Shown here piece after piece: positions 6,828-41,733 of a DNA stretch of 44,753 nucleotides. The stretch's first letter is position 1, and each line of letters starts with the position of its first letter. The notes beneath the pieces were generated by a model. It ran no database searches. It was given only the letters and a program-made list of their open reading frames with translations, and was not told the origin of the DNA. A program made the translations under genes and the position numbers. Origin of the DNA: a virus (taxonomy: Duplodnaviria > Heunggongvirae > Uroviricota > Caudoviricetes); the IMG/VR virus record IMGVR_UViG_2917860307_000001, positions 1 to 44,753 of that record. One strand, 5' to 3'.

Positions 6828-7660
6828 ACAGTTTAACGGCAAATAACCGTTTGTCGCAACAGCAGGTGGTCAGCGTCGCTGAACACCTGTTGTTACGGCA
6901 TGAATGCAGATTACCAAATCACCTGGCTGTAAGTAACCACAGAGAACTTTACCTGACTGTGGGGGGCGAGTTGTGCAGGAACTTAACCGCTGGTTTCGTG
7001 ACGGAAGAGGGCTTTATGTCCATGTTATTCGTTGGGAGCCAGAAACACAGCGCGTTATCTATCTTCGCAAAGACTACCCGCATGAGTGTTTTAGTCCTTT
7101 GTGGAAATTCAGGCGTGATTTTGTTGAGTGTGAAGGACCACCAGCACATTGATTCTGCCATTCCGGGACGTTACACTGTTCAGGCACCTTATAAAGCGGG
7201 TGCCGGGATTGGCGTCCTGGAAATGTTATCGGCGATATATGACGCGCCAGCGTCTTTTTTATCGTCTGCGTCTGCGCACACCCAAATTATGGTGGGCTGG
7301 ACGGGGGCACCGAAAGGTGCGCCGGTTTCCGATAACGCCGGTTACGCCAACCCCGTTCAGTTCACCACCAGCGAAATTGGCGTTTCCGGTGGTGAAGGTA
7401 ATTCACTGTTATCGGAGGCTGCCATCATGGCTACTGTCCCAGCCCTCTCTCGTCTGAATGATGAAGACTTACATAAACTCAGTTATGTAACAACTGCACT
7501 ACGTGCTCTGCGCAAGGTAACTCTTTCGGATCCGCAGGCGCATCAGGTTCTGGTAGAAACCCTTCTTAACTTGCAGGCTGAACGTATTCGTCTGGCGGAT
7601 AAGGCTAATTTTCATATTCACCGTCTCCTGAATATCAGCGGAGGGCATCGTCATGCTTAA
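6824..7660 (+). CDS. Hypothetical protein (possibly YdaU-like); frame integrity uncertain
   Basis: 278-aa ORF; a protein-like 59-codon alternative-frame ORF (6973-7152) begins at a G6 run at 6961-6966. Confidence 0.35.
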   Translation: MNSLTANNRLSQQQVVSVAEHLLLRHECRLPNHLAVSNHRELYLTVGGELCRNLTAGFVTEEGFMSMLFVGSQKHSALSIFAKTTRMSVLVLCGNSGVILLSVKDHQHIDSAIPGRYTVQAPYKAGAGIGVLEMLSAIYDAPASFLSSASAHTQIMVGWTGAPKGAPVSDNAGYANPVQFTTSEIGVSGGEGNSLLSEAAIMATVPALSRLNDEDLHKLSYVTTALRALRKVTLSDPQAHQVLVETLLNLQAERIRLADKANFHIHRLLNISGGHRHA

Positions 7661-7889
7661 TCCGTTGATCCTCAATATTTGCCGTTTGCTTCAGCGTAAA
7701 AAAACATCAATTCCTACAGTTGGGCAGTGGTACACCACGCCTGCAGGGCATGTTCTACGTGTTAGCCTGGTTGACCGTGAATGTCAGAAGGTGATTTGTG
7801 AACCGCTGGGCCGTAATTACCGAGTCAGTATGCCGCTTATAGCCTTTTGCTCCGGAAAAAACATGAAGCATCTCGGAGGTGCAGCATGA
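7653..7889 (+). CDS. Hypothetical protein
   Basis: 78-aa ORF in the rightward early operon. Confidence 0.3.
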   Translation: MLNPLILNICRLLQRKKTSIPTVGQWYTTPAGHVLRVSLVDRECQKVICEPLGRNYRVSMPLIAFCSGKNMKHLGGAA

Positions 7890-8704
7890 GTATGGAGCTG
7901 ATGGTTAAAGCGATGAAAATTCGAGTGGGTAATCCATTGCGAAAACTGGTTCTGATCAAGCTGGCTGATAATGCCAGCGATCAGGGTGAGTGCTGGCCCA
8001 GCTACCAGCATATTGCTGACCAGTGCGAGATTAGCAAACGTTCTGTGATGAATCATATTGCGGCCCTTTGTGAGTCCGGGCTGGTAAAAAAAGTCACCCG
8101 GAAAGGTGAAAAAGGTAACTCAAGTAATATCTATCTCCTTCATCTGGATGGTGCAGGAGATTCACTAGGGGGTAGTGCAAATAATTCACTATCTGGTGCA
8201 GCAAATTCACCAGGTAGTGCAGGAGTTGCACCAGGGGGTAGTGCAGGAGATTCACCCAGAACCAGTCACTCTTTTGAACCAGTCAAAGAACCAGTCAATG
8301 AACCAATAGCTGTTGGTGAATCTGCTGATGAGTCTGTGCGGGTTCGTTCAAACCGACCGGAATACTCTCCGGAGTTTGAACAGGCATGGCTGGCATATCC
8401 CAAACGTGCTGGTGGCAATTCAAAATCTGCAGCCTTCAAAGCCTGGAAAGCCCGTTTGAATGAGGGGGTAAACCCCGAAACCATGCTGGAAGGTGTGAAA
8501 CGCTACGCGGGCTGGATATCTGCGATGGGTAACAGCGGCACACAATTTGTTAAACAGGCTGTCACGTTCTTTGGTCCGGATCGTCATTTCGAAGAATCCT
8601 GGGAAGTTCCTGCGGTATCGGCAGCCAGATGCGAAGACCCGTACTTCAAAGCCAGTTACAACAATGTGGACTACAGCCAGATCCCGGCAGGATTCAGGGG
8701 GTGA
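7886..8704 (+). CDS. Phage replication initiation protein (N-terminal HTH, Gly/Ser-rich linker)
   Basis: Start at MSMELMVKAMK (ATG 7886, GGAGGTG RBS); N-terminal helix-turn-helix resembling phage replication proteins; imperfect DNA repeats encode the GS linker. Confidence 0.6.
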   Translation: MSMELMVKAMKIRVGNPLRKLVLIKLADNASDQGECWPSYQHIADQCEISKRSVMNHIAALCESGLVKKVTRKGEKGNSSNIYLLHLDGAGDSLGGSANNSLSGAANSPGSAGVAPGGSAGDSPRTSHSFEPVKEPVNEPIAVGESADESVRVRSNRPEYSPEFEQAWLAYPKRAGGNSKSAAFKAWKARLNEGVNPETMLEGVKRYAGWISAMGNSGTQFVKQAVTFFGPDRHFEESWEVPAVSAARCEDPYFKASYNNVDYSQIPAGFRG

Positions 8705-8706
8705 GC

Positions 8707-9192
8707 ATGAGCCTGATGAGTGAGATTCAAAAATTCATTGAAAGCAATCCTGGATGTACGACCGGTGATATTGCGAATGCGTTTGCATACTTTCCACGTC
8801 CCCGTGTACTGAATACGACCCGTAAGTTACGCCAGTGCAGACGTGTCGCTTATCGCAGTGAAGGCAAAACACACAGGCATTTTTCTCGCAAGGCTGTGTT
8901 GCCACCTGAGCCGGTGCTGAAGCATATGAGTGTGGCCAGTAAAAGCTACGTCGGCACTAATGATCAGCGGGTGATTTTGCGCCTGATTCAGCAGGCAGAA
9001 GATCTGGAGTCCAGAGGTTTATTCCGTCGTGCTGCAACGGTGTGGATGGAGGCATTCCGTGAAAGCCACTCCCAGTCAGAACGAAACAATTTTCTGGCGC
9101 GCGTGAGCGGTGCTTACGGAAAAGCAGCAAGCGCGCTGTATCGGGTGATGAGTGGTATCTGTCAGGGAATTACGTGGGGGCTTAATGAGTAA
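8707..9192 (+). CDS. PerC-family-like regulator / hypothetical protein
   Basis: Start ATG 8707; C-terminal motif LESRGLFRRAATVWMEAFRESHSQSERNNF resembles PerC-like activators. Confidence 0.4.
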   Translation: MSLMSEIQKFIESNPGCTTGDIANAFAYFPRPRVLNTTRKLRQCRRVAYRSEGKTHRHFSRKAVLPPEPVLKHMSVASKSYVGTNDQRVILRLIQQAEDLESRGLFRRAATVWMEAFRESHSQSERNNFLARVSGAYGKAASALYRVMSGICQGITWGLNE

Positions 9193-9838
9193 TAAATATT
9201 GCCAGGCGCTGGTGGAGCTGCGAAACAAACCAGCCCATGAACTGAAGGAAGTGGGCGATCAGTGGCGCACGCCGGACAACATTTTCTGGGGAATTAACAC
9301 CCTGTTTGGCCCGTTTGTTCTGGATCTGTTCACTGACGGTGATAACGCCAAATGTGCCGCGTATTACACGGCGGAAGACAACGCGCTGGCGCATGACTGG
9401 TCAGAACGTCTTGCGGAGCTTAAAGGTGCTGCCTTTGGTAATCCCCCATACAGCCGCGCCAGTCAGCATGAGGGGCAATACATCACCGGCATGCGTTACA
9501 TCATGAAACATGCCAGTGCCATGCGTGATAAGGGCGGGCGCTATGTTTTCCTGATCAAAGCTGCCACCAGCGAAGTGTGGTGGCCGGAAGACGCAGACCA
9601 TATTGCTTTTATTCGCGGGCGTATTGGTTTTGAACTGCCTGCCTGGTTTATCCCGAAGGATGAGAAGCAGGTGCCGACAGGCGCTTTCTTCGCTGGTGCT
9701 ATTGCTGTTTTCGACAAGACCTGGAAGGGAGCGGCAATCAGCTACATCGGGCGCGATGAACTTGAGGCATGTGGTGAGGCCTTTCTGGCGCAGGTTCGCC
9801 AGCAGGCTGAAAAACTGGTCAGGGAGATGGCGGCATGA
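9185..9838 (+). CDS. Phage Dam-like DNA N6-adenine methyltransferase
   Basis: Start MSNKYCQ (ATG 9185); NPPY catalytic motif (AAFGNPPYSR). Confidence 0.7.
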   Translation: MSNKYCQALVELRNKPAHELKEVGDQWRTPDNIFWGINTLFGPFVLDLFTDGDNAKCAAYYTAEDNALAHDWSERLAELKGAAFGNPPYSRASQHEGQYITGMRYIMKHASAMRDKGGRYVFLIKAATSEVWWPEDADHIAFIRGRIGFELPAWFIPKDEKQVPTGAFFAGAIAVFDKTWKGAAISYIGRDELEACGEAFLAQVRQQAEKLVREMAA

Positions 9839-10161
9839 CGACGTTAACTCAATGCCAGCAGCAGGTGCTGGATATGCTGATTTCTTACCAGAAAGAGCGT
9901 GGCTTTCCGCCAACCAATCAGGAGGTGGCAACCATGCTGGGATACCGTTCAGTGAATGCAGCGGTAGAGCATCTTCGCGCACTGGAGAAAAAAGGCGTCA
10001 TCACGATAAAGCGTGGCGTGGCCCGGGGGATAACGCTTCATACCGCGGTGAAGGACGACGACAGCGAGGCGGTCGGGATTATCCGCGCACTGCTTGCCGG
10101 TGAGGAAAACGCAAGGCTGCGTGCAACCCACTGGTTACATGAGAGGGGCCTGAAAGTATGA
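9835..10161 (+). CDS. LexA N-terminal DNA-binding-domain protein (no peptidase domain)
   Basis: 108 aa; QQVLDMLISYQKERGFPPTNQEVATMLGYRSVNAAVEHLRALEKKGVITI closely parallels the LexA N-terminal domain (recalled from memory). Confidence 0.6.
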   Translation: MTTLTQCQQQVLDMLISYQKERGFPPTNQEVATMLGYRSVNAAVEHLRALEKKGVITIKRGVARGITLHTAVKDDDSEAVGIIRALLAGEENARLRATHWLHERGLKV

Positions 10162-10547
10162 AGCTGATCCTGCCTTTTCCGCCCAGCGTGAACACGTACT
10201 GGCGACACCCCAACAAAGGGGCGTTTGCTGGTAAGAGTCTGATAAGCGCAGCGGGGCGCAAATTCCAGAGCGCGGCGTGCGCAGCAATAGTTGAGCAGTT
10301 ACGTCGTCTGCCGAAACCAACGTCGGCACCTGCTTCAGTGGAGATCGTGTTGTTTCCTCCGGATAACCGGATCCGCGATCTGGACAACTATAACAAGGCG
10401 ATGTTTGACGCCCTGACCCACGCGGGTGTGTGGGAAGACGACAGTCAGGTGAAAAGAATGCTGGTTGAGTGGGGACCGGTTATCCCGGGAGGGAAGGTCG
10501 AGATCACTATCAGTAAGTACGAGAAAACGGCGGGTGCAGCCGCCTGA
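10158..10547 (+). CDS. rusA: Holliday junction resolvase RusA
   Basis: 129 aa; typical RusA sequence (LPFPPSVNTYW...D.DNY.KA..DAL). Confidence 0.8.
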   Translation: MKLILPFPPSVNTYWRHPNKGAFAGKSLISAAGRKFQSAACAAIVEQLRRLPKPTSAPASVEIVLFPPDNRIRDLDNYNKAMFDALTHAGVWEDDSQVKRMLVEWGPVIPGGKVEITISKYEKTAGAAA

Positions 10548-10566
10548 TTAAGAGGAGAAACGAAGT

Positions 10567-11376
10567 ATGAATAATCTGATGGTCATTGATGGTATTGAAG
10601 TTCGTCGTGATGCTTATGGGCGTTACAGCCTGAACGATCTGCACAGGGCAGCCGGGGGAGAACAAAAAAACCGCCCGAAATACTGGCTCTCCAATAAGCA
10701 AACCTGTGAATTGATTGAACAACTTTTCACCGAGGGTGGAATTCCGCCTCTGGAACAAAATCAACCAGTTAGCGTCATTAATGGCGGAAATAACCAGGGG
10801 ACGTATGTCTGCAAAGAACTGGTGTATGCCTATGCAATGTGGATCAGCCCGTCATTCCATCTGAAGGTGATCCGTACTTTCGATATGGTAACCAGCGCAC
10901 CGGAAAAATTATCCGGGCAGGCTGCTGACAAGATGCAGGCTGGAGTGATTCTGCTGGACTTTATGCGCCGGGAGTTAAACCTGTCTAACTCTTCAGTGCT
11001 TGGTGCCTGTCAGAAACTCCAGGAGGCTGTTGGCTTACCGAATCTGGCACCGCGCTATGCCATTGATGCTCCTGCTGATGCACACGATGGCTCAAGTCGC
11101 CCGACACTGTCACTGAGTGCACTGCTGAAACAGTATGGTATCCGCCTGACGGCTAATCAGGCATATCACCAGATGGTGAAGCTGGGGATCGTCGAGCAGC
11201 GCGAACGATACAGCCGTACCGCGATTAACAACATCAAAAAATTCTGGTTGCTGACAGCGAAAGGCTGCATGTTCGGCAAGAACATCACCAGTCCCGCCAA
11301 TCCGCGCGAGACGCAGCCGCATTTCTTCGAATCCCGATTCCCTGAGCTGTTAAAGCTGCTCGATACCGTTCATTGA
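10567..11376 (+). CDS. KilA-N domain protein
   Basis: N-terminal KilA-N pattern (VIDGIEVRRDAYGRYSLNDL...AMWISPSFHLKV). Confidence 0.6.
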   Translation: MNNLMVIDGIEVRRDAYGRYSLNDLHRAAGGEQKNRPKYWLSNKQTCELIEQLFTEGGIPPLEQNQPVSVINGGNNQGTYVCKELVYAYAMWISPSFHLKVIRTFDMVTSAPEKLSGQAADKMQAGVILLDFMRRELNLSNSSVLGACQKLQEAVGLPNLAPRYAIDAPADAHDGSSRPTLSLSALLKQYGIRLTANQAYHQMVKLGIVEQRERYSRTAINNIKKFWLLTAKGCMFGKNITSPANPRETQPHFFESRFPELLKLLDTVH

Positions 11377-11377
11377 G

Positions 11378-12373
11378 GTGACCGTGAGAGCACTACTGAC
11401 CCCTGAAATTGCCCCGCGTATGGGGATCGTATTGTTCAGGCCAGGTTCAGAGCTGATGCCCCTGTTTATGCAGGGGCGTGTCCTGCTGGAGCCTGAGCCG
11501 GAACGTTATTCATCTTTCGCCAGTGGTGCCGTTCCGGCGGCATCACAACCGCTGGCGGATGATCCTGCCGTTCGGGCCGTGTTCCGCAATGAGGCAGTGA
11601 TCCGTCGTGCTGGTGGCGTGGAATGTCTTGAAAGCTGGTTACTTCGTGAAAAAGGCTGCCAATGGCCTCATTCCGACTGGCACAGCGAGAACATGACCAC
11701 AATGCGACACGCTCCGGGCGCAATCCGTCTGTGCTGGCACTGCGATAACCAGCTGCGCGATCAGTTCACGGAACGGCTGGAATCAATGGCAACGGATAAC
11801 TGTGCCCGCTGGGTGTTGTCTGTAGTCCGTCGGGATCTCGGTTTTGATGATAACCATGCCGTGACAATGCCGGAACTGTGCTGGTGGCTGATTCGTAATG
11901 ACCTGGCGGATGCCTTACCTGAAAGCGCAGCCCGTAAGGCGCTGAGATTACCGAAACCTGCTGTGCCGTCTGTCACCCGGGAAAGTGACCTTGTGCCTTC
12001 GGTTCCTGCCACCAGCATCATCCAGGATAAAGCGAAAAATGTGCTGGCGCTGAAAGTGGATCCGGAGTCGCCGGAGTCTTTTATGTTACGCCCAAAACGC
12101 CGCCGCTGGGTTAATGAAAAGTACACGCGCTGGGTTAAGACACAGCCGTGTGCATGTTGTGGAAAGCCTGCTGATGATCCCCACCACCTGATAGGCCACG
12201 GTCAGGGTGGAATGGGTACAAAAGCGCATGACCTCTTTGTGTTGCCTTTGTGCAGAAAGCATCACGACGAGCTGCATGCGGATACCGTGGCATTTGAAGA
12301 GAAGTATGGCTCTCAGCTGGAGCTGATATTTCGTTTTATCGATCGTGCGCTGGCAATTGGCGTATTGGCGTAA
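11378..12373 (+). CDS. DUF968 domain protein
   Basis: GTG start; C-terminal Cys/His cluster PCACCGKPADDPHHLIGHG...LPLCRKHHDELH typical of DUF968 nin-region proteins. Confidence 0.6.
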   Translation: MTVRALLTPEIAPRMGIVLFRPGSELMPLFMQGRVLLEPEPERYSSFASGAVPAASQPLADDPAVRAVFRNEAVIRRAGGVECLESWLLREKGCQWPHSDWHSENMTTMRHAPGAIRLCWHCDNQLRDQFTERLESMATDNCARWVLSVVRRDLGFDDNHAVTMPELCWWLIRNDLADALPESAARKALRLPKPAVPSVTRESDLVPSVPATSIIQDKAKNVLALKVDPESPESFMLRPKRRRWVNEKYTRWVKTQPCACCGKPADDPHHLIGHGQGGMGTKAHDLFVLPLCRKHHDELHADTVAFEEKYGSQLELIFRFIDRALAIGVLA

Positions 12374-12386
12374 GTGGAGAACGAGC

Positions 12387-12941
12387 ATGAACCTTGAAGC
12401 CTTACCAAAATATTACTCCCCAAAATCTCCAAAATTGAGCGATGACGCACCGGCGACAGGCTCAGGTGGTTTAACGATTACGGATGTGATGGCTGCGCAG
12501 GGGATGGTGCAGTCGAAAGCACCGCTTGGGTTTGCCTTATTCCTGGCAAAAGTTGGTGTTCAGGATCCTCAATTTGCGATTGAAGGTCTGCTCAATTACG
12601 CGATGGCACTGGATAACCCGACATTGAACAAATTGAGTGAAGAAACCCGGTTACAGATCATCCCTTACCTTGTGAATTTTGCCTTTGCTGATTATTCCAG
12701 GTCTGCGGCAAGTAAGGCTCGCTGTGAGCATTGTGCTGGTACTGGATTTCATAATGTATTGCGCGAAGTGGTGAAACACTCCAGAAGCGGGGAATCTGTT
12801 ATCAAGGAAGAGTGGGTGAAGGAACTATGTCAGCATTGCCATGGTAAGGGAGAAGTCAGCACAGCGTGCAGAGGGTGTAAGGGTAAAGGTATTGTCCTGG
12901 ATGAAAAAAAGAACCCGGCTTCATGGTGTGCCTGTTTATAA
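12387..12941 (+). CDS. Antitermination protein Q (as read, terminates early; see downstream +1-frame fragment)
   Basis: Start MNLEALPKYY (ATG 12387); three CxxCxGxG zinc-finger repeats; position upstream of PR'-like promoter and lysis genes. Confidence 0.6.
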   Translation: MNLEALPKYYSPKSPKLSDDAPATGSGGLTITDVMAAQGMVQSKAPLGFALFLAKVGVQDPQFAIEGLLNYAMALDNPTLNKLSEETRLQIIPYLVNFAFADYSRSAASKARCEHCAGTGFHNVLREVVKHSRSGESVIKEEWVKELCQHCHGKGEVSTACRGCKGKGIVLDEKKNPASWCACL

Positions 12942-13140
12942 GATTTGTGGGCGTTGCAATGGCAACCGGTTTAGCCGTTTACCAACCACACTGGCGCGGC
13001 ATCATGTCCAGAAACTGGTACCGGACCTGACGGATTATCAGTGGTACAAAGGATATGCAGACGTTATTAATAAACTGGTTACAAAGTGCTGGCAGGAAGA
13101 AGCGTATGCTGAATCGCAATTGAGAAAAGTGACAAGATAG
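12901..13140 (+). CDS. Probable C-terminal fragment of antiterminator Q in the +1 frame
   Basis: Overlapping ORF in +1 frame beginning at the A7 run (12904-12910); carries a fourth CxxCxG repeat (CGRCNGNR). Confidence 0.35.
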   Translation: MKKRTRLHGVPVYKICGRCNGNRFSRLPTTLARHHVQKLVPDLTDYQWYKGYADVINKLVTKCWQEEAYAESQLRKVTR

Positions 13141-13171
13141 ATAATTTTCGCCGAAGATGTCGACGTGATGC

Positions 13172-13200
13172 TTGCATTTTTCAAAAAATATGGATAAGAT
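13172..13200 (+). promoter_or_regulatory. Late promoter PR'-like
   Basis: -35 TTGCAT, 17-nt spacer, -10 TAAGAT directly downstream of Q and about 45 nt upstream of a terminator. Confidence 0.45.
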
Positions 13201-13242
13201 TTTCTCAACGATGGGCCTTGTATGTCTACCGTTGGTAAATGT

Positions 13243-13268
13243 CAAAAACCCGCTGCTGAGCGGTTTTT
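13243..13268 (+). terminator. tR'-like rho-independent terminator
   Basis: AACCCGCT-GCTG-AGCGGTT hairpin (one-base bulge) followed by T7. Confidence 0.55.
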
Positions 13269-13428
13269 TTGTGCCTGATGTCTCATGAAACTATGAAATG
13301 GATTGGTGCGTTAAACATTTTTTCTTATTATCTTTTAGATTTTGGAGAGATGGTTAACGTCTGTATTCCAGAAACTCGATGGTTATTTAATAAATTAGTT
13401 TCAATGATGCTTCTAGGTTATGACTGTA

Positions 13429-13827
13429 ATGAAAAAGGTATTAATAGCAGCGATAGGTTTTTGTTTAGTTGGTTGTGCAGGTATGAAATTACCTGAGTAT
13501 TCGCAAGTTAAAGCAAGTCCGTATTATACAGATTGCCGTGCGTTTGCCATGGATGTTTATAAAAATGATGGATACAGCAAAATTGCGAAAACTACTATCC
13601 TTAGCATGGATGATGTGAAGGCTAGATATATTGTGACAGGGTGTGTAGTTGCTATGGGGAAAAACACTGTAGAGGAAATCAAAGCTGATCTCTCTGCTAA
13701 AGGGAGTTCTTTTGGGCTTATCAGTGGAGCTTGTTCTAGTGTGGCATGTCGGGTTGATGTAGAGCAGCAAATGAACGCTTATGTACTTGGTAGTTATTAT
13801 GCTGCAAATAAAAAAATTCCCGGATAA
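13429..13827 (+). CDS. Lipoprotein (moron)
   Basis: Signal peptide with lipobox MKKVLIAAIGFCLVGCAG; markedly low-GC gene flanked by terminators; alternative start at 13420. Confidence 0.6.
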   Translation: MKKVLIAAIGFCLVGCAGMKLPEYSQVKASPYYTDCRAFAMDVYKNDGYSKIAKTTILSMDDVKARYIVTGCVVAMGKNTVEEIKADLSAKGSSFGLISGACSSVACRVDVEQQMNAYVLGSYYAANKKIPG

Positions 13828-13922
13828 AATGAAAGCAGAGTTTTAAGCAAACCTTGTTTTCGATTATATGTCGAAGATAAATGTTAGTAACGGCATAATA
13901 AGTAAATATATAGCTGTGATAG

Positions 13923-13948
13923 CAACCCGCCACTGAGCGGGTTTTTTG
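13923..13948 (+). terminator. Rho-independent terminator
   Basis: AACCCGC-CACTGA-GCGGGTT hairpin followed by T6; near-copy of the terminator at 13243. Confidence 0.55.
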
Positions 13949-14069
13949 TACCCGTAAACTTGGTGCAGTACAGTAAACACGCTGGTGGTCGTGAATACTG
14001 ACTTTTTATCTTGCTGGCTTTTTAGACAAGAGTTATTGGTATGTCATGTTAACCAGAAGGGAAAAAGAC

Positions 14070-14273
14070 ATGCTAAAACAGCAAGATATGACAGAAACCG
14101 CCGCCGCAGTCCTTCATTTCTTACCTGCTGACAAGTGGGTAACGCCACGCATGATGACGAGAACTACCGGAGTAAGCGAAGCCCGGTGCCAGTTAATACT
14201 GACTCAGTTAGTTCTGGCGGGTCTGGCGAAGGATAACGGCGGGTACGGGAATAAATTCAGACGCTGCCAGTAA
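14070..14273 (+). CDS. Small putative DNA-binding protein (winged-helix-like)
   Basis: Start MLKQQDMTE (ATG 14070, AAGGGA RBS); 67 aa. Confidence 0.35.
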   Translation: MLKQQDMTETAAAVLHFLPADKWVTPRMMTRTTGVSEARCQLILTQLVLAGLAKDNGGYGNKFRRCQ

Positions 14274-14423
14274 TGGCGGTTTCCTGCTGTGAAAATGGGC
14301 GGCTGGTGGGTGTTGGTAGCACGTGCCAGCCATTCGCTCATGCTTACTGGTCACAAGCGAACCACGGCCCACTGCTTTAGCGCAAAAGCAGAGTGAGCCT
14401 ACCAGAGTTACGCTTACTGATCC

Positions 14424-15476
14424 ATGAAAAATACTGTAAAAATAAACAGTGTTGATTTAATCAACGCTGATTGCCTGCATTTTATTCAGTCCCTGCCTGA
14501 TGATTCCATTGACCTGATTGTTACCGATCCGCCGTACTTCAAGGTGAAACCCAACGGCTGGGACAATCAGTGGAAAGGGGACGAAGATTACCTTAAGTGG
14601 CTGGACCACTGTCTGGCCCAGTTCTGGCGGGTGTTAAAACCTGCCGGAAGCCTTTACCTGTTCTGTGGGCATCGCCTGGCATCTGATATTGAGATCATGA
14701 TGCGTGAACGTTTCAACGTGCTTAACCATATCATCTGGGCGAAGCCGTCCGGACGTTGGAATGGGTGTAATAAAGAAAGTCTGCGCGCATATTTTCCTGC
14801 CACAGAGCGCGTTCTGTTTGCTGAACATTACCAAGGGCCATATCGCGGCAAAAGTGACGGCTATGCGGCAAAAGAAAGGGAACTCAAACAGCACATAATG
14901 GCACCGCTGATATCGTATTTCAGGGATGCTCGTGCCGAACTGGGTATAACGGCAAAACAAATTGCCGAAGCCACAGGTAAGAAAAATATGGTTTCCCACT
15001 GGTTTGGTGCCAGTCAGTGGCAGTTGCCGAATGAGGCTGACTATCGGAAGTTACAGGCACTGTTTTCCCGTATAGCGGCAGAGAAGTTTCAGGAACAACA
15101 ACTGGAACAACCACACCACCAGCTGGTGGCATCTTATGATTCACTGAATCGCAAATATTCTGAATTGCTGGATGAGTTTAAATCTCTCCGGCGCTATTTC
15201 TCCGTATCAGTCTCCGTGCCTTATACCGATGTCTGGATGCATAAACCCGTTCAGTTCTACCCGGGTAAACATCCGTGTGAGAAACCGGCGGATATGCTCA
15301 GGCAAATAATCAATGCCAGTAGTCGACCTGGTGATCTGGTTGCTGATTTTTTTATGGGATCCGGTTCCACAATAAAAGCAGCAATGGCGCTGGGGCGTCG
15401 GGCCTTAGGTGTTGAGCTTGAGTCAGAGCGGTTTAACCAGACAGTGAAAGAGATAAACGAGCTGGTGGGGAAATAA
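14424..15476 (+). CDS. Orphan DNA methyltransferase (N6-adenine/N4-cytosine family, DPPY motif)
   Basis: 350 aa; motif IVTDPPYF near the N-terminus and a C-terminal AdoMet-binding-like region (DFFMGSGST). Confidence 0.8.
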
Positions 15477-15482
15477 TCTGGT

Positions 15483-15506
15483 GGCCACGTCAGGTGGCCT
15501 TTTTAT
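15483..15506 (+). terminator. Rho-independent terminator
   Basis: GGCCAC-GTCAG-GTGGCC hairpin followed by T5. Confidence 0.55.
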
Positions 15507-15543
15507 TTCCATTACACAGCACCCGCATCTGCGAGGTGGGGTT

Positions 15544-15758
15544 ATGAAATCCATGGATAAGTTAACAACGGGTGTCGCCTATGGCACCTCAGCAGGTAGT
15601 GCCGGGTACTGGTTTTACAGTTGCTCGATAAAGTCACGCCCTCACAGTGGGCGGCAATAGGTGTGCTGGGTAGTCTGGTGTTTGGCCTGCTGACGTATCT
15701 GACAAATCTTTATTTCAAGATTAAAGAAGACAAGCGTAAGGCTGCACGGGGAGAGTAA
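15544..15758 (+). pseudogene. Class II holin (S21-type pinholin), frame interrupted at a T4 run (15613-15616)
   Basis: ATG 15544 with GAGGTGG RBS gives [24 protein letters not shown] then a stop; a second frame continues [47 protein letters not shown]; together about 71 aa. Confidence 0.65.
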
Positions 15759-15762
15759 TTCA

Positions 15763-16077
15763 ATGACTCAAAACTATGAACTGATTGTGAAAGGGATCCG
15801 CAATTTTGATAATAAAGTTACGGTAACTTTAGCGTTACGGGACAAAAAACGCTTTGACGGTGAAATTTTTGACCTGGACATCTCGCTGGACCGTGTTGAA
15901 GGTGCCGCGCTGGAGTTTTATGAGGCAGCAGCCAGAAGGAGCATCAGACAGGTCTTCCTGGATGTTGCTGCTGGGTTATGTGAAGGGGACGAGCTGTTGC
16001 CAGAAACGCGCCCCTGTTCAGAGGCGCGGTATACCATAAAAATTAACAGTTCTGATAACTCGATTACGGGTTGTTAG
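15763..16077 (+). CDS. DUF1327 protein (YdfR-like)
   Basis: 104-aa ORF between holin and endolysin, as in Qin-type lysis cassettes (from memory). Confidence 0.55.
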   Translation: MTQNYELIVKGIRNFDNKVTVTLALRDKKRFDGEIFDLDISLDRVEGAALEFYEAAARRSIRQVFLDVAAGLCEGDELLPETRPCSEARYTIKINSSDNSITGC

Positions 16078-16132
16078 CTTTTTGCAGTTGGCTTTCCAGT
16101 ATCTTTCATTGGTAGCATCCTGATAAATATCC

Positions 16133-32241: not shown

Positions 32242-32245
32242 TCCC

Positions 32246-32989: not shown

Positions 32990-33534
32990 AAACGGGGGCC
33001 GAAGCCATCCGGGCGCTGGCCACACAGCTCCCGGCGTTTCGTCAGAAACTGAATGACGGCTGGTATCAGGTGCGCATTGCCGGGCGTGATGCAGGTGAAA
33101 CCGAATTATCTGCCCGTCTTAATGAGCCGCTGGCAAATGGTGCCGTGATCCATATCGTGCCGCGTCTGGCGGGAGCTAAAAGTGGCGGTGTATTTCAGGT
33201 GGTGCTGGGGGCGGCGTTGATTGCGGTGGCATGGTGGAACCCTGTGGGCTGGCTGGGTGCCGCGGCTGTATCGGGCATGTATGCGGCAGGGGCCAGTATG
33301 ATCCTGGGCGGTGTGGCGCAGATGCTGGCACCGAAAGCCAGGACGTCCACGGCAGCCAGTACAGATAACGGCAAACAGAACACCTATTTCTCCTCACTGG
33401 ATAACATGGTTGCTCAGGGCAATGTTTTGCCTGTTCTGTACGGTGAAATGCGTGTGGGGTCGCGGGTGGTTTCTCAGGAGATCAGCACGGCAGACGAAGG
33501 GGACGGTGGTCAGGTTGTGGTGATTGGTCGCTGA
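32887..33534 (+). CDS. Tail assembly protein I
   Basis: 215 aa; N- and C-termini match lambda gpI as recalled; overlaps K as in lambda. Confidence 0.85.
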   Translation: MAATHTLPLASPGMARICLYGDLQRFGRRIDLRVKTGAEAIRALATQLPAFRQKLNDGWYQVRIAGRDAGETELSARLNEPLANGAVIHIVPRLAGAKSGGVFQVVLGAALIAVAWWNPVGWLGAAAVSGMYAAGASMILGGVAQMLAPKARTSTAASTDNGKQNTYFSSLDNMVAQGNVLPVLYGEMRVGSRVVSQEISTADEGDGGQVVVIGR

Positions 33535-33594
33535 TGCAAAATGTTTTATGTGAAACCGCCTCCGGGCGGTTTTGTCGTTTATGGAGCATGACGA

Positions 33595-36500
33595 ATGGGT
33601 AAAGGCAGCAGTAAGGGGCATACCCCGCGAGAAGCGAAGGACAACCTGAAATCCACGCAGTTGCTGAGTGTGATTGATGCCATCAGTGAAGGGCCGATTG
33701 AAGGTCCGGTGGATGGATTAAAAAGCGTGCTGCTGAACAGTACGCCGGTGCTGGACACTGAGGGGAATACCAACATCTCCGGTGTCACAGTGGTGTTCCG
33801 GGCAGGTGAGCAGGAGCAGACTCCGCCGGAGGGATTTGAATCCTCCGGCTCCGAGACGGTGCTGGGTACGGAAGTGAAATATGACACGCCGATCACCCGG
33901 ACCATCACGTCTGCAAATATCGACCGTCTGCGCTTTACCTTCGGTGTGCAGGCACTGGTGGAAACCACCTCAAAGGGGGACAGGAATCCGTCGGAAGTCC
34001 GCCTGCTGGTTCAGATACAACGTAACGGTGGCTGGGTGACGGAAAAAGACATCACCATTAAGGGCAAAACCACCTCGCAGTATCTGGCCTCGGTGGTGGT
34101 GGATAACCTGCCGCCGCGACCGTTCAATATCCGGATGCGCAGGATGACACCGGACAGCACAACAGACCAGCTGCAGAACAAAACGCTCTGGTCGTCATAC
34201 ACCGAAATCATCGATGTGAAACAGTGCTACCCGAACACGGCACTGGTCGGCGTGCAGGTGGATTCGGAGCAGTTCGGCAGCCAGCAGGTGAGCCGTAATT
34301 ATCATCTTCGCGGGCGCATTCTGCAGGTGCCGTCGAACTATAACCCGCAGACGCGGCAATACAGCGGTATCTGGGACGGGACGTTTAAACCGGCATACAG
34401 CAACAACATGGCCTGGTGTCTGTGGGATATGCTGACCCATCCGCGCTACGGCATGGGGAAGCGTCTCGGTGCGGCGGATGTGGACAAATGGGCGCTGTAT
34501 GTCATCGGCCAGAATTGCGACCAGTCGGTGCCGGATGGCTTTGGTGGCACGGAGCCGCGCATCACCTGTAATGCCTACCTGACCACACAGCGTAAGGCGT
34601 GGGATGTTCTCAGTGATTTCTGCTCGGCGATGCGCTGTATGCCGGTATGGAACGGGCAGACGCTGACGTTCGTGCAGGACCGACCGTCGGATAAGGTGTG
34701 GACCTATAACCGCAGTAATGTGGTGATGCCGGATGATGGCGCGCCGTTCCGCTACAGCTTCAGCGCCCTGAAGGACCGCCATAATGCCGTTGAGGTGAAC
34801 TGGATTGACCCGAATAACGGCTGGGAGACGGCGACAGAGCTTGTTGAAGATACGCAGGCCATTCTCCGTTACGGTCGTAACGTCACGAAGATGGATGCCT
34901 TTGGCTGTACCAGCCGGGGGCAGGCACACCGCGCCGGGCTGTGGCTGATTAAAACGGAGCTGCTGGAAACGCAGACCGTGGACTTCAGCGTGGGTGCAGA
35001 AGGGCTTCGCCATGTACCGGGCGATGTCATTGAAATCTGTGATGATGACTATGCGGGTATCAGCATCGGCGGGCGCGTGCTGGCGGTGAACAGCCAGACG
35101 CGGACACTGACGCTCGACCGTGAAATCACGCTGCCATCCTCCGGCACCACGCTGATAAGCCTGGTTGACGGACAGGGGAATCCGGTCAGCGTGGAGGTCC
35201 AGTCCGTCACCGACGGCGTGAAGGTGAAAGTGAGACGGGTTCCTGACGGCGTTGCAGAATACAGCGTGTGGGGGCTGAAGCTGCCGACGCTGCGCCAGCG
35301 CCTGTTCCGCTGCGTGAGTATCCGTGAGAACGATGACGGTACGTATGCCATCACCGCCGTGCAGCATGTGCCGGAGAAAGAAGCCATCGTGGATAACGGG
35401 GCGCACTTTGACGGCGACCAGAGCGGCACGGTGAATGGTGTCACTCCGCCAGCAGTGCAACACCTGACCGCAGAAGTCACCGCAGACAGCGGGGAATACC
35501 AGGTGCTGGCGCGCTGGGATACGCCGAAGGTGGTGAAGGGCGTGAGCTTTATGCTTCGCCTGACCGTGGCAGCGGATGACGGCAGTGAGCGGCTGGTCAG
35601 CACGGCCCGGACGACGGAAACCACATACCGCTTCAGGCAGCTGGCTCTGGGAAATTACAGTCTGACAGTCCGGGCGGTAAATGCGTGGGGGCAGCAGGGC
35701 GATCCGGCGTCGGTATCGTTCCGGATTGCCGCACCGGCAGCGCCATCGCGGATTGAGCTGACGCCGGGTTATTTTCAGATAACCGCCACGCCGCATCTTG
35801 CGGTTTATGATCCGACTGTACAGTTTGAGTTCTGGTTCTCGGAAAAGCGGATTGCGGATATCAGGCAGGTTGAAACCACAGCCCGCTATCTTGGCACGGC
35901 GCTGTACTGGATAGCCGCCAGTATCAATATCAAACCGGGCCATGATTATTATTTTTACGTTCGCAGTGTGAACACCGTCGGCAAATCGACATTCGTGGAG
36001 GCTGTCGGTCGGGCGAGCGATGATGCGGAAGGTTACCTGGATTTTTTCAAAGGCCAGATAACCGAATCCCATCTCGGCAAGGAGCTGCTGGAAAAAGTCG
36101 AGCTGACGGAGGATAACGCCAGCAAACTGGAGGAGTTTTCGAAAGAGTGGAAGGACGCCAACGATAAATGGAATGCCATGTGGGGCGTCAAAATTGAGCA
36201 GACCGAAGACGGCAGGCATTATGTCGCGGGGCTTGGCCTTAGTATGGAGGATACGGAGGAAGGCAAACTGAGCCAGTTCCTGGTTGCCGCTAACCGTATC
36301 GCGTTTATTGACCCGGCAAACGGGAATGAAACGCCGATGTTTGTGGCGCAGGGCAACCAGATATTCATGAACGAAGTGTTCCTGAAGTATCTGACGGCTC
36401 CCACCATTACCAGTGGCGGCAATCCGCCGGTATTTTCCCTGACACCGGACGGGCGGCTGACGGCGAAAAATGCCGATATCAGCGGTAACGTGAATGCGAA

Positions 36501-36993
36501 CTCCGGGACGCTCAATAATGTCACGATTAACCAGAACTGTCGGATTCTGGGAAAACTGTCTGCCAACCAGATTGAAGGTGATATTGTCAAAACGGTGGGA
36601 AAAGCCTTTCCGAGAAATGGCAGTTATGCCAGCGGTACAATAACGGTCACTGTGTACGATGACCAGGCTTTTGACCGTCAGATAGTAATCCCACCCGTTC
36701 TGTTTCGCGGTGGTAAGCATGAAAACTTCAACAGCAACAACCAACAGTCATACTGGTATTCAACCTGTAAGCTGCAGGTGCTGAAGAACGGACAGGAAAT
36801 CTTTCAGCAACCCGCGACGGATGTCAGCAGGGTATTTTCATCCGTCATTGATATGCCTGCCGGACACGGTCATGTCACCCTGACTTTCAATGTTTCTTCA
36901 TATGGTGCTAATAACTGGACGCCAACGACCAGTATCAGCGACCTTCTTGTTGTCGTGATGAAGAAATCAACAGCCGGTATCAGTATCAGTTGA
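33595..36993 (+). CDS. Tail tip / host specificity protein J
   Basis: 1132 aa, same length as lambda gpJ with strong similarity over the N-terminal and central regions. Confidence 0.9.
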
Positions 36994-37011
36994 ATTTTAT
37001 AACCCCAATAC

Positions 37012-37037
37012 GGGCGCCAGAAATGGCGCCTTTTTTA
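37012..37037 (+). terminator. Rho-independent terminator after J
   Basis: GGCGCC-AGAAAT-GGCGCC followed by T6. Confidence 0.55.
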
Positions 37038-37060
37038 TTGCAGAAAAGCGAGAGGTAATT

Positions 37061-37660
37061 ATGCGTAAATTATGTGCTGTTATTCTGTCTGCAGTAGTCT
37101 GGCTGGTCGCCGCTGGTACGCCAGCGAGTGCAGCAGAGCATCAGTCCACACTAAGCGGCGGGTATCTTCAGTCCCATACTGATATGCCCGGCAACGATGA
37201 CCTGAAGGGCATTAACGTGAAATACCGTTATGAATTTACGGACACGCTGGGGCTGGTGACGTCATTCAGCTATGCAGGAGACAAGAATCGCCAGCTTACC
37301 CGTTACAGCGATACCCACTGGCATGAAGATTCCATTCGTAACCGCTGGTTCAGCGTGATGGCGGGGCCGTCTGTGCGCGTGAATGAATGGTTCAGCGCGT
37401 ATGCGATCGCGGGTGTGGCTTACAGCCGTGTGTCGACTTTTTCCGGGGATTATCTTCAGGTGACCGACAACAAGGGGGATACGCACGATGTGCTGACCGG
37501 AAGTGATGACGGTCGCCACAGCAACACGTCTCTGGCGTGGGGGGCTGGCGTGCAGTTTAACCCGACCGAATTCGTGGCCATTGATATTGCTTATGAAGGT
37601 TCCGGCAGTGGCGACTGGCGCACTGACGGTTTCATCGTGGGTGTCGGTTATAAATTCTGA
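37061..37660 (+). CDS. lom: Outer membrane protein Lom (Ail/Lom family)
   Basis: 199 aa with signal peptide; beta-barrel OMP pattern ending GVGYKF; position after J as in lambda. Confidence 0.8.
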
Positions 37661-37685
37661 TTAGCCAGGTAACACAGTGTTATGA

Positions 37686-37713
37686 CAGCCCGCCGGTTCA
37701 GGCGGGCTTTTTT
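37686..37713 (+). terminator. Rho-independent terminator after lom
   Basis: AGCCCGCC-GGTTCA-GGCGGGCT followed by T6. Confidence 0.55.
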
Positions 37714-37724
37714 GTGGAGTGGAT

Positions 37725-40082
37725 ATGGCAGCAGTAAAAATCTCAGGTGTGCTGAAAGATGGTGCGGGTAAACCAATACAGAACTGCACTATTCAACTGA
37801 AGGCAAAGCGTAACAGCACCACGGTACTGGTGAACACGGTGGCCTCTGAAAATCCGGATGAAGCCGGGCGTTACAGCATGGATGTTGAGTATGGCCAGTA
37901 CAGCGTCATCCTGCTGGTTGAAGGTTTTCCGCCTTCACATGCCGGGACCATTACCGTCTATGAAGGCTCCAGACCAGGTACGCTGAATGATTTTCTCGGT
38001 GCCATGACGGAAGATGATGTCATGCCGGAGGCATTGCGTCGTTTTGAGGCAATGGTGGAAGAAGCGGCACGCAACGCCGAAGCCGCCTCTCAGAGCGCAG
38101 CGGCGGCAAAGAAATCCGAAACTGCAGCGGCATCATCGAAGAACGCGGCGAAAACCTCAGAAACGAATGCAGCTAACAGCGCACAGGCGGCAGCGTCCTC
38201 GCAGACTGCATCGGCAAACTCCGCGACAGCAGCCAAAAAATCAGAAACCAACGCGAAAAACAGTGAGACAGCCGCAAAGACGAGCGAAACCAACGCAAAG
38301 TCCAGCCAGACGGCAGCGAAAACAAGCGAAACGAATGCCAAAGCCAGTGAAACTGCGGCGAAAAGCAGTCAGGATGCAGCAGCCGAAAGCGAGAGTGCTG
38401 CAGCTGGTTCTGCGACTTCAGCAGCTGGATCAGCAACTGCTGCGGCTAACAGCCAGAAAGCCGCGAAGACGAGCGAAACTAACGCAAAGTCCAGCCAGAC
38501 GGCAGCGAAGACCAGCGAAACGAATGCCAAAGCCAGCGAAACTGCGGCGAAAAACAGTCAGGATGCAGCAGCCCAAAGCGAGAGTGCCGCAGCTGGTTCT
38601 GCAACAGCGGCAGCTAATAGCCAAAAAGCTGCAAAAACCAGTGAAACTAACGCAAAGACGAGTGAAACAAAAGCAGCAGCCAGCGAGACAGAAGCAACGT
38701 CAGCCGCAACAAGAGCAGAGAATGCAGCCCGGATTGCAGAAGATGCCGCTGATCCTGCTTCTGTCCCTCCGCTTCCTGATATCTGGCTACCCTTGAATGA
38801 TTCTCTGGAAGCGATAACAGGGTATGCCCCGGGCTATAAAACAATAACCATCGGCAGTGATGAAATAACAATGCCTGTTAATGGCATATGCCAATTTAGC
38901 CGGGCTTCATCTGCAACGTATATTGATAAGTCCGGGCATATTACCGTGGCAGGGAATAACGTTCCTCGTTTTGAAAAATATGGTTTGCTGATAGAGAATC
39001 AGCGAACAAACATGTTCGTAAATAGTTTTAATCCTGATGCCTGGAATAAAAGCGGTGGTATATCTGTAACATCATCAACAGATGAATTTGAGTTTAAATA
39101 TGGACGTTTCACGGTAGGAAGCGATATAGCAGGAACGACAACAGGGAGAAATATATGCACAGTTGCTGGTAACAAAGGCATAGATGTGACTGGCGATGAT
39201 CAGTACAGTAAAGGTCCGTATGTTACCGCGTCGTTCAGGGTAAGAAGTGATCTCAATGTTCGCGCACGTATCCGTTTTGAACGGTATAACTCGGAAGGAT
39301 ACACCTTCCTTTGCGACGCCTATTTGTCATTACAGACCCATGAACTACAAATTACTGGTGGCAATGCCCAGCTATTAACAGCAAACTTTGAAATCGATCC
39401 AGGTAGTGGATGGATATACTTTCAGGCAACACTGAAATGTCTGCCAGAATGGGGAATGGTTGGTACGCAGCTGCAAATTGCAGCCGACAGAGCTGTGGGG
39501 TCTTTTGCAACAGGTGACTGGATAGAAGTAACCACCCCGCAATTCGAGTATGGTGCTTGTGCAACTTCCTTCATCATAACGACAACTGAGCCAGCGACTC
39601 GTGCATCAGATTTATGTAAATTTCCGCTGATGAAAAATATGTATACCATGCCTTTTACGTTCATGGTGGAAGTCCATAAAAACTGGTTTATTTCTCATAA
39701 TGCGGCACCGCGTGTCATTGATTCAGAAAATCACCAGTCCGGAGGCCCATTTATTATGGGGTTTGGTTCTTCTGGAACTATTAGTCAGGACGGTTATTCG
39801 TATTGCGATATAGGCGGGGCTAACCGACGTGTATATGAGTCATGCGGAGTAAGAGATCTTGTTATGGGATTCAGGGTTAAGGCTGACGGCATGACATGCT
39901 CATTTGCAAATAAGCATATAAGCACAGAAACAAAAACAGTATGGAAATATATTCGTGAAGCTGCTGTGATTCGTATCGGGGGACAAACGACGACAGGATT
40001 ACGACACCTTAATGGTCATATAAAAAACCTCCGTTTCTGGAACAGAGCATTGTCAGATACGCAGCTTAAGGAATACGTATAA
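37725..40082 (+). CDS. Side tail fibre protein (lambda Stf-like N-terminus, repetitive shaft, LamG-like C-terminal domain)
   Basis: N-terminus AVKISGVLKDGAGKPIQNCTIQLKAKRNSTTVLVNTV parallels lambda Stf; Ala/Ser/Thr/Lys-rich repeats; C-terminal motif GHIKNLRFWNRALSDTQLKEY typical of LamG-type jelly-roll domains. Confidence 0.75.
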   Translation: MAAVKISGVLKDGAGKPIQNCTIQLKAKRNSTTVLVNTVASENPDEAGRYSMDVEYGQYSVILLVEGFPPSHAGTITVYEGSRPGTLNDFLGAMTEDDVMPEALRRFEAMVEEAARNAEAASQSAAAAKKSETAAASSKNAAKTSETNAANSAQAAASSQTASANSATAAKKSETNAKNSETAAKTSETNAKSSQTAAKTSETNAKASETAAKSSQDAAAESESAAAGSATSAAGSATAAANSQKAAKTSETNAKSSQTAAKTSETNAKASETAAKNSQDAAAQSESAAAGSATAAANSQKAAKTSETNAKTSETKAAASETEATSAATRAENAARIAEDAADPASVPPLPDIWLPLNDSLEAITGYAPGYKTITIGSDEITMPVNGICQFSRASSATYIDKSGHITVAGNNVPRFEKYGLLIENQRTNMFVNSFNPDAWNKSGGISVTSSTDEFEFKYGRFTVGSDIAGTTTGRNICTVAGNKGIDVTGDDQYSKGPYVTASFRVRSDLNVRARIRFERYNSEGYTFLCDAYLSLQTHELQITGGNAQLLTANFEIDPGSGWIYFQATLKCLPEWGMVGTQLQIAADRAVGSFATGDWIEVTTPQFEYGACATSFIITTTEPATRASDLCKFPLMKNMYTMPFTFMVEVHKNWFISHNAAPRVIDSENHQSGGPFIMGFGSSGTISQDGYSYCDIGGANRRVYESCGVRDLVMGFRVKADGMTCSFANKHISTETKTVWKYIREAAVIRIGGQTTTGLRHLNGHIKNLRFWNRALSDTQLKEYV
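38275..38640 (+). repeat. Two tandem imperfect copies of an approx 170-190 bp unit within the tail fibre gene
   Basis: Repeated DNA encoding KTSETNAKSSQTAAKTSETNAKASETAAK(S/N)SQDAAA(E/Q)SESAAAGSAT...; one copy carries an extra 21-nt insert. Confidence 0.6.
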
Positions 40083-40351
40083 TGCGGGATATAACATTAC
40101 GATTCGATAACAGAGAACAGTTTAACGCAATTGTATATGACAGTGGCCTGTTCAGTCTTGAAGAAGAAAACGGGGTTCTTGTTGATGTTATTGGCTGCGT
40201 TATCGATTACGAGGAGCCAGAAAACGAAAGATGTACAGGCATTGATCGCGGTGGTTTTTTCGTAAACATGAGGATCGTTGATAGCAGTAAAAACATATCT
40301 TCTTTAATGCCTTTCATTACGACAGATCAGCATGTAAGGACATGGGCTTAA
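40082..40351 (+). CDS. Hypothetical protein (possible fibre accessory/assembly factor)
   Basis: 89-aa ORF overlapping the tail fibre stop. Confidence 0.35.
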   Translation: MRDITLRFDNREQFNAIVYDSGLFSLEEENGVLVDVIGCVIDYEEPENERCTGIDRGGFFVNMRIVDSSKNISSLMPFITTDQHVRTWA

Positions 40352-40363
40352 TGGAGTAAGACA

Positions 40364-41404
40364 ATGGTTACAAAAACAGTAATTCCTGATGACATCAAAA
40401 CGCTAAAATCCGATGTTAGTAAACTAAAAGCTGATCAAGGAAGCTATGCAACAAAATCTTATGTAGACAATAAAACAACATGGAATGGTTATTGCAATGT
40501 AATCTATGATCAAAAAACATTGCCAACAACTGGAACTATATTCAGCGGTAAGCTGCATTTGTCAAATAAGACTGGTGAAACGGAAAACGCTTATAGTGAC
40601 ATATATACCAGAAAAAATATTGATGGTACTAAAGATACAATGACGAGGATCGTCACACATAACGGGACAAAAGGTATCTTTTGGGACTTTAGTGATCTTT
40701 ACGGAGGAACTTTAATTTTCCCTGGCACTGCTGGTTATTTGAAAATGGGTAAGTGCCTCATGTCCTATGGGGATCGTGTAGATAATGCCCTGATTAAATT
40801 TGATTATACAGACACATTACAGATCAAATATGCCAATCATGGTTCGACCATGACACTAAACACACAGGGAACCGCTCACGCTGGCGTTACTGCTAAATTG
40901 TGGGGCAATTCTAGCCGTCCGGTTGTTTATGAAGTTGGTGTAGATGGTGGGGCTTTTATATTCTTTGGTCAAAAACAAACAGATGACACATATGCATTTG
41001 CTGTTAATGGTGCATGTCAAGCGACCGCATTTAACCAGACCTCTGACCGAGACCTGAAAGATAATATTCAGGTGATTGATAATGCAACCGATCGCATCCG
41101 TAAGATGAATGGTTATACATACACGCTTAAAGAAAACGGGATGCCTTACGCTGGTGTTATCGCACAGGAAGCCTTAGAAGCAATTCCAGAGTCCGTAGGC
41201 TCTACGATAAAATATAGGGACGGTGGTAGCGGATCTGAAGGCGAAGAAGGTGAACGGTATTACACTGTAGATTATTCTGGTGTTACTGGCTTGCTTGTTC
41301 AGGTAGCCAGAGAGTCAGACGACAGAATAACAGCACTGGAAGAAGAAAACGCAGAATTAAGACAAATGTTATCTGCAATTGAGGCGGCGCTTGCGTCTAA
41401 ATAA
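40364..41404 (+). CDS. Tail fibre/receptor-binding protein with C-terminal intramolecular chaperone (peptidase S74-like) domain
   Basis: C-terminal SDRDLKDNIQVIDNATDRIRKMNGYTYTLKENGMPYAGVIAQEALEAIPESV followed by a coiled coil, typical of autoproteolytic fibre chaperone domains. Confidence 0.6.
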   Translation: MVTKTVIPDDIKTLKSDVSKLKADQGSYATKSYVDNKTTWNGYCNVIYDQKTLPTTGTIFSGKLHLSNKTGETENAYSDIYTRKNIDGTKDTMTRIVTHNGTKGIFWDFSDLYGGTLIFPGTAGYLKMGKCLMSYGDRVDNALIKFDYTDTLQIKYANHGSTMTLNTQGTAHAGVTAKLWGNSSRPVVYEVGVDGGAFIFFGQKQTDDTYAFAVNGACQATAFNQTSDRDLKDNIQVIDNATDRIRKMNGYTYTLKENGMPYAGVIAQEALEAIPESVGSTIKYRDGGSGSEGEEGERYYTVDYSGVTGLLVQVARESDDRITALEEENAELRQMLSAIEAALASK

Positions 41405-41409
41405 TATTA

Positions 41410-41433
41410 AGGGGCCGAGCGCCCCGTTTTATT
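41410..41433 (+). terminator. Hairpin/T-run after fibre gene
   Basis: GGGGC-CGAGC-GCCCC followed by GTTTTATT. Confidence 0.4.
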
Positions 41434-41733
41434 GGGTAGGATGAAAATGGATATAACACCCTTACTTCATGCACTTTGTGCTGTGGCTGCGCAGCTACTG
41501 ATTGGTCTTTTTACCGGGAACTGGGCTTACGGAGCGATAGCCGGTTGTACGTTCTTCATTGCGCGTGAACACACCCAGGCAGAATATCGCTGGATTGAAA
41601 TGTTCGGACATGGCAAGCGTATGAATATGCGTGGTGGGGCGGTTTTGATCCGCGCGTGTGGGATGTAGCAAGCCTGATGGATTTTGCTGTGCCGGTGATG
41701 GCGTGTCTGCTGGTCTGGCTGTTTATCCGTTAA
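41432..41733 (+). pseudogene. Small membrane protein, frame interrupted near a G4 run (41636-41639)
   Basis: 78-aa ORF ends at 41668, while a protein-like hydrophobic C-terminus (FDPRVWDVASLMDFAVPVMACLLVWLFIR) continues in the adjacent frame to 41733. Confidence 0.4.

Follow-up and report, generated by a model that had tools for sequence, protein, structure and literature searches.

Are the interrupted genes of the lambda-like prophage in IMG/VR record IMGVR_UViG_2917860307_000001 real pseudogenes, or were they introduced when the host genome was sequenced and assembled? The window analysed here is the whole record, 44,753 nucleotides (nt) long, and it contains a lambda-like prophage integrated at dusA in which genes for regulation, lysis and tail assembly change frame at single-base positions. 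The original prediction, made from the letters alone, had left two readings: homopolymer miscalls of the kind that some sequencing platforms produce, or a cryptic prophage inactivated by slippage mutations. We find it very probable that the frame breaks arose from Ion Torrent sequencing together with consensus indel errors that became part of the PDIF01 draft assembly of Escherichia sp. E2748. An artefact is favoured over a decaying prophage because every broken gene is intact in a second data set from E2748.

Frame breaks of the window compared with a second data set from E2748

Every indel was listed from alignments to E. coli relatives, and the unpaired ones were inspected across 13 loci and in three-frame translations. 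Seven single-base indels disrupt coding frames, and at each of them the aligned relatives are unanimous against the window. The affected genes, together with two intergenic runs that also differ in length, are as follows (A7 denotes a run of seven A's; aa, amino acids).

8707 to 9192, plus strand: PerC-like gene; one C lost at 9101/9102 shifts the C-terminal part
12387 to 13140, plus strand: antiterminator Q gene; split by A7 at 12904-12910 (A6 in relatives)
13261 to 13263, plus strand: intergenic G run; GG in the window versus GGG in VATP01000034.1
13420 to 13827, plus strand: lipoprotein-like gene, 141 aa; A7 at 13810-13816 (A6 in relatives), only the C-terminus altered
15544 to 15760, plus strand: EssD-type holin gene, 71 aa; T4 at 15613-15616 (T5 in relatives)
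27418 to 27424, plus strand: intergenic T7 between the tail tube gene V and gene G; true length T6
28137 to 31204, plus strand: tape measure gene, true length 1021 aa; two +1 insertions, net +2
41447 to 41733, plus strand: small membrane-protein gene, 95 aa; one C lost at 41630

For strain E2748 there is a second assembly, GCA_005781125.1 (VATP01), whose proteins with TLI accessions are labelled Escherichia sp. E2748, and we used an independent Logan assembly of run SRR8835203 as a further comparator. Together these contigs, referred to here as the second data set, cover 4886-9908, 10218-13973, 14303-31882 and 41534-44753 (29.6 kb of the window) and compare with it as follows.

4886-9908, VATP01000020.1 (L040): 0 mismatches, 1 indel (the PerC C)
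10218-13973, VATP01000034.1 (L037): 1 synonymous mismatch, 3 indels (Q A6, GGG at 13261, lipoprotein-like A6)
14303-26077, VATP01000019.1 (L033): 0 mismatches, 1 indel (holin T5)
15374-16866, Logan contig SRR8835203_476 (L035): same result as VATP01000019.1
25646-31882, Logan contig SRR8835203_45 (L043): 0 mismatches, 3 indels (T6 at 27418, both tape measure A's absent)
41534-44753 plus 9.6 kb of host sequence, Logan contig SRR8835203_114 (L018): 0 mismatches, 3 indels (the C at 41630, yjbQ, uvrA)

All seven coding breaks are gone in these contigs. Over the 29.6 kb, the second data set differs from the window by nine single-base indels (seven coding, two intergenic) and one synonymous substitution, which lies in the KilA-N gene (C versus A at window 11298) and is the sole substitution between the E2748 assemblies in 39 kb.

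The individual sites agree with this picture. At the PerC-like gene the true sequence is GCGCGCCGTG, where the window reads GCGCG-CGTG; the extra base is present in all eight relatives aligned there and in VATP01000020.1, which encodes an intact PerC of 159 aa and has no mismatch to the window over 5,024 nt, and the Prokaryotic Genome Annotation Pipeline (PGAP) annotated no protein at this gene in PDIF01. Two guessed PerC starts (161 and 185 aa) were absent from the protein collection; the 159-aa form is the one annotated in VATP01, and it was the DNA comparison that settled the site. VATP01000034.1 has A6 and an intact 250-aa Q, and the repaired 250-aa product exactly matches a widespread E. 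coli Q protein found on about 1000 or more contigs. The A7 allele of Q occurs in none of the 2,184 complete E. coli genomes that carry the segment, judged at the best place per record, and the best matches among 2,188 records are one A shorter. The neighbouring G run at 13261 sits in a terminator-like GC stem that is followed by T7. Repair of the lipoprotein-like gene yields an exact match to TLI79869.1 (Escherichia sp. E2748), and over the 11,776 nt shared by VATP01000019.1 and the window the only difference is one T in the holin gene, which gives T5 and an intact 71-aa holin; the same T5 is found in Logan contig SRR8835203_476.

The tape measure gene is broken twice, by A7 at 29721-29727 where relatives have A6 and by a spurious A at 29811 (GC[A]TGC) that lies outside any homopolymer. 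Neither A is present in Logan contig SRR8835203_45, which has a single open reading frame (ORF) of 1021 aa and no mismatch to the window over 6,237 nt, and the A at 29811 is also absent from the Logan assembly of run SRR6148327. The doubly repaired 1021-aa protein exactly matches a widespread E. coli protein, seen on 27 contigs. Neither insertion was found in 1,825 complete E. coli genomes, again at the best place per record, and the best matches among 1,828 records are identical at all 139 shared bases and have neither A. The intergenic run at 27418 is T6 in the Logan assemblies of both SRR8835203 and SRR6148327. Finally, at 41630 the true ATGCCGTGG has become ATGCGTGG in the window, and the repaired 95-aa small membrane protein is identical to TLI84472.1 (Escherichia sp. 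E2748, VATP01000019.1). The truncated products themselves (the N-terminal parts of Q and of the tape measure protein, the holin fragment and the small protein) had no exact match in the protein collection, which is uninformative alone because the National Center for Biotechnology Information (NCBI) leaves pseudogenes untranslated.

Errors of the same kind extend into the host chromosome. The host flank shows no substitutions and two indels between the two data sets, yjbQ having T6 rather than T7 and uvrA TT rather than T in the second; both genes are broken in PDIF01 only and are called as genes in the SRR8835203 contig. The two sites lie past the right end of the window, in the host flank of PDIF01000060.1 (positions 17996 and 19408 of locus L014). 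We infer that, of the two, it is the second data set that is accurate, since it matches all relatives at each of the seven coding breaks, since every ORF is restored in it, two host genes included, and since three sites match an alternative assembly of the first read set. On this comparison of sequences, the Q, holin, tape measure, PerC-like, lipoprotein-like and small membrane-protein genes are almost certainly intact in the real prophage.

These results bear on the sites named in the original prediction. Its frame changes in Q (at A7), in the holin gene (at T4) and in the tape measure gene (at A7) were all recovered at the positions listed above, as was a frame change in the small membrane-protein gene; its placement of the last at a G4 run did not hold, the lost C lying 6 nt upstream of that run. 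The four named genes are indeed affected, but the list missed three further breaks, namely the second tape measure insertion at 29811, the PerC-like site at 9101/9102 and the lipoprotein-like site at 13810-13816. The check that it had proposed was well chosen; the part that compares related strains was carried out on 13 loci, each of which is in frame wherever it aligns to a break of the window. A further candidate break, the G6 run at 6961, is dropped.

6961 to 6966, plus strand: G6 run within a 278-aa ash-family ORF (6824-7660); an overlapping DUF4222 ORF starts downstream, at GTG 6973

This run is the same in L001, the sole relative aligning there, and falls within 4886-9908, where the second E2748 assembly differs from the window at 9101 only. 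The ash protein in which it lies also has 278 aa in the annotations of the two E2748 assemblies and of many E. coli genomes.

Other length differences from the relatives were set aside. Paired neighbouring indels, such as those at 7226/7230 and 36775-36789, come from the alignment of divergent stretches and leave the frame unchanged. The large terminase and the DNA methyltransferase are far too widespread to be specific: their look-ups returned 5,143 and 22,622 index blocks and only E. coli relatives, which served as extra comparators. Separately, the spacer between the L stop and the K start (window 32238-32245) reads TAATCCCATG versus TAAATCCCATG in E. coli relatives, so that the window is one A shorter. 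In the Logan assembly of the first read set the spacer is as in the window, and the site lies outside the second data set; the missing A may be real, or it may be another error, and it has no coding effect.

Source of the deposited sequence and its indel pattern

Ion Torrent instruments read homopolymer length from signal strength, which leads to over-called and under-called runs, and they also produce sporadic single-base indels. The window is 100% identical to PDIF01000060.1 (GCA_004745355.1) across 33340-44753, 23595-44753 and 5763-26077, and protein names identify the strain behind PDIF01 as Escherichia sp. E2748; the dusA product exactly matches proteins filed under "unclassified Escherichia". 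PDIF00000000 is described as strain E2748 of cryptic clade II (PMC6639607), and its draft was produced by Ion Torrent from single-end reads of 35-400 nt at 45x, assembled with MIRA and SPAdes (PMC6639607). The platform of PDIF01 is thus an indel-prone one. Under the explanation that we favour, the instrument would have over-called or under-called runs and added sporadic single-base indels, the assembler consensus would have fixed part of these errors in the draft, and those that fell within genes would mimic frameshifts.

Several features of the differences are those of such a process. Over 39.2 kb the ratio of indels to substitutions is 11:1. Within the 29.6 kb, runs of length 7 were miscalled in 4 of 16 cases (all over-called true 6-mers), as against 5 of 21,779 other runs (Fisher p = 2e-11). 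The indel rate was 0.32/kb in the prophage versus 0.18/kb in the host, a difference that is not significant (p = 0.36). The breaks come with failure to reproduce in the same strain, an excess of indels enriched in long runs, and errors in host genes too.

The first read set is itself noisy. Run SRR6148327 appears, from the sequences, to be the Ion Torrent run of PDIF01, and its Logan assembly differs from PDIF01 by no substitutions and by single-base indels only: aphA has A9 versus A7, which splits aphA; yjbQ has T6; the run at 27418 is T6; the A at 29811 is absent; 30914 has T5 versus T6; and 37871 has T versus TT. For a single read set passed through two assemblers, disagreement is thus limited to base counts at indel sites. 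The SRR6148327 contigs are also interrupted precisely at the A run of the tape measure gene, one ending at 29726 (L042) and another starting at 29722 (L031).

The window thus shares with known Ion Torrent indel artefacts the occurrence of single-base indels nearly alone, the enrichment in the longest runs, the presence of errors in prophage and host alike and run lengths that depend on the assembly. It differs from them in that three of its seven coding breaks sit in runs of one or two bases, one of them outside any run. Accordingly, the attribution to miscalls by the platform in the original prediction is borne out by the Ion Torrent source and by the loss of the breaks in the second data from the same strain, and the long-run enrichment supports its description of the pattern; the part of that description which confined the breaks to homopolymers fails at the three short-run sites, which are better matched by general indel noise of Ion Torrent and assembly than by slippage alone.

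Real inactivation, mixed populations and recoding

The breaks could instead be real pseudogenes, slippage mutations having inactivated genes for regulation, lysis and the tail and left a cryptic remnant in E2748. Such decay was plausible at the outset, and it has parallels among relatives: the tape measure gene is disrupted in four of nine related loci that have an identical large terminase, E. coli E2348/69 among them. The four disruptions (L005, L007, L009, which is E. coli E2348/69, and L012; ~18930-22020 in each) comprise one nonsense mutation and three frameshifts, and real tape measure pseudogenes seem to be common in prophages of this family. In E. coli ECL27977 the small membrane-protein gene is likewise annotated as frameshifted. 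However, the disruptions in the four E. coli loci lie at positions other than those of the window, and the site in ECL27977 is also a different one. The deposited locus does resemble cryptic lambdoid prophages of E. coli in having a complete gene order with interrupted Q, holin and tape measure genes, but it differs from them in that its breaks are not reproducible, stand at positions unseen in relatives and are accompanied by no other decay, the sequence downstream of the breaks being perfectly conserved. None of the seven breaks recurs in the second assembly or the second read set of E2748, breaks of this type affect uvrA and yjbQ in PDIF01 only, and the 11 indels stand against 1 substitution over 39 kb on an Ion Torrent platform. 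We therefore consider real pseudogenes very unlikely, and for E2748 the second data set refutes the cryptic prophage that the original prediction had offered as its other reading.

The two data sets could also have sampled different sub-populations or passages of E2748, through a mismatch-repair mutator or phase-variable homopolymers, which we regard as extremely improbable. At four of the sites the tract consists of 5 to 7 A's or T's, a type that slips in vivo, and the break between Logan contigs of the first run falls exactly at the A run of the tape measure gene, which shows disagreement among the reads there. Disagreement of reads at a homopolymer is, however, what is expected from Ion Torrent noise. 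Tract length is invariant, and in frame, in the 13 aligned loci and in the best matches of ~1,800-2,200 E. coli genomes; non-repeat sites are broken too, as is uvrA, an essential-repair gene of the host; and a mutator would yield substitutions too, of which one was seen. A specific form of this idea, to which we give an equally minute probability, is that the Q and tape measure tracts are unstable in E2748 cultures and that the first library caught a real sub-population silenced by slippage; if this were true, late expression and tail assembly would be silenced, which would amount to a phase-variable switch of prophage inducibility. A last alternative is programmed recoding: ribosomal frameshifting or transcriptional slippage at the A7 run of Q and at that of the tape measure gene would restore the frame during expression. 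A runs are known slippery sites, and the same window contains a conserved arrangement of the programmed type at the tail genes G and T. A programmed site should keep an out-of-frame layout among relatives, yet A6 and a single open frame are present in every relative and in the second E2748 assembly; for the tape measure gene, a further event would be required at 29811, which is not slippery. Since no relative is out of frame, recoding at the A7 runs is excluded, and its probability is negligible.

Some points weigh against the explanation by sequencing and consensus errors and should be read with it. The short-run breaks are general indel or consensus/assembly errors rather than classic miscalls of long homopolymers. 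The pairing of SRR8835203 with VATP01, and of SRR6148327 with PDIF01, comes from sequence identity and accession series. The platform of VATP01 and SRR8835203 was not found in literature searches and is possibly also Ion Torrent. In addition, positions 1-4885, 9909-10217, 13974-14302 and 31883-41533 lie outside the second data set; no frame breaks were found in these parts of the window.

One frame change in the window is of another kind.

27441 to 27827 (G) and 27836 to 28165 (T), plus strand: tail chaperone genes; T lies in the -1 frame relative to G

The G/T layout is the same in every relative, and the mechanism would be that established for lambda G/gpGT. The canonical GGGAAAG heptamer is absent here; positions 27813-27821 read CCGGAAAAG and G ends CCG GAA AAG TCC TGA (27813-27827). 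In its place GGAAAAG (27815-27821) is the likely slip site, and G/T is likely the sole frame change of the window that is expected to be genuine, as a conserved programmed frameshift.

The prophage, its clade II host and consequences for the E2748 draft

Apart from the breaks that we attribute to sequencing and consensus errors, the gene order of the whole prophage is complete in comparison with relatives.

Left part of the prophage, in order: early genes, cI-type repressor, replication and Nin-region genes, Q, lysis cassette
After the lysis cassette, in order: terminase, portal, ClpP-protease/capsid fusion, tail genes V-G-T-H-M-L-K-I-J, lom, tail fibres
42154 to 43251, minus strand: integrase, adjoining host dusA
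43340 to 44377, plus strand: host dusA, at the right prophage-host junction (42154 to 44377)

The prophage has 96-99% nucleotide identity to dusA-integrated prophages in many E. coli genomes and to phages PhiR47_1 and mEp460. It shares with the mEp460 and PhiR47_1-like lambda-like prophages that integrate at dusA a head module with a ClpP-protease/capsid fusion, the gene order and the integrase beside dusA, with the 96-99% identity extending over the head, tail and late regions, and the phage itself is ordinary; it differs from them in its host, which is Escherichia cryptic clade II. The host flank (dusA and pspG; window 43340-44753) is ~92.5% identical to E. coli, without gaps, and the host is placed in an Escherichia species other than E. 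coli because this identity is no higher.

Two observations concern the distribution of such prophages. The identity of the clade II host flank to E. coli (~92.5%) stands against the 96-99% identity of the prophage to E. coli prophages, and this difference suggests recent phage exchange between Escherichia cryptic clade II and E. coli. In sister clade II strains (E4385 and relatives; L015-L017), the dusA site has a 95.6% identical integrase and a DinI module, and upstream of dusA a Mu-like set of tail and baseplate genes replaces the lambda-like prophage.

The above analyses yield no biological finding; the breaks represent a known type of Ion Torrent indel artefact in an ordinary dusA-integrating lambda-like prophage. 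Their consequences concern the PDIF01 draft, which has approximately one single-base indel per 3 to 5 kb, and its frameshifts and pseudogenes are not to be taken as biology; in particular, the apparent uvrA and yjbQ pseudogenes are not to be believed. Use of PDIF01 will inflate pseudogene counts, the calling of prophages as "cryptic" and any analysis of functional divergence, and the same caution may extend to sister Ion Torrent assemblies of that project. GCA_005781125.1 is the better reference for E2748. As judged from its corrected sequence, the E2748 prophage looks complete and is most likely intact, and it may be inducible.

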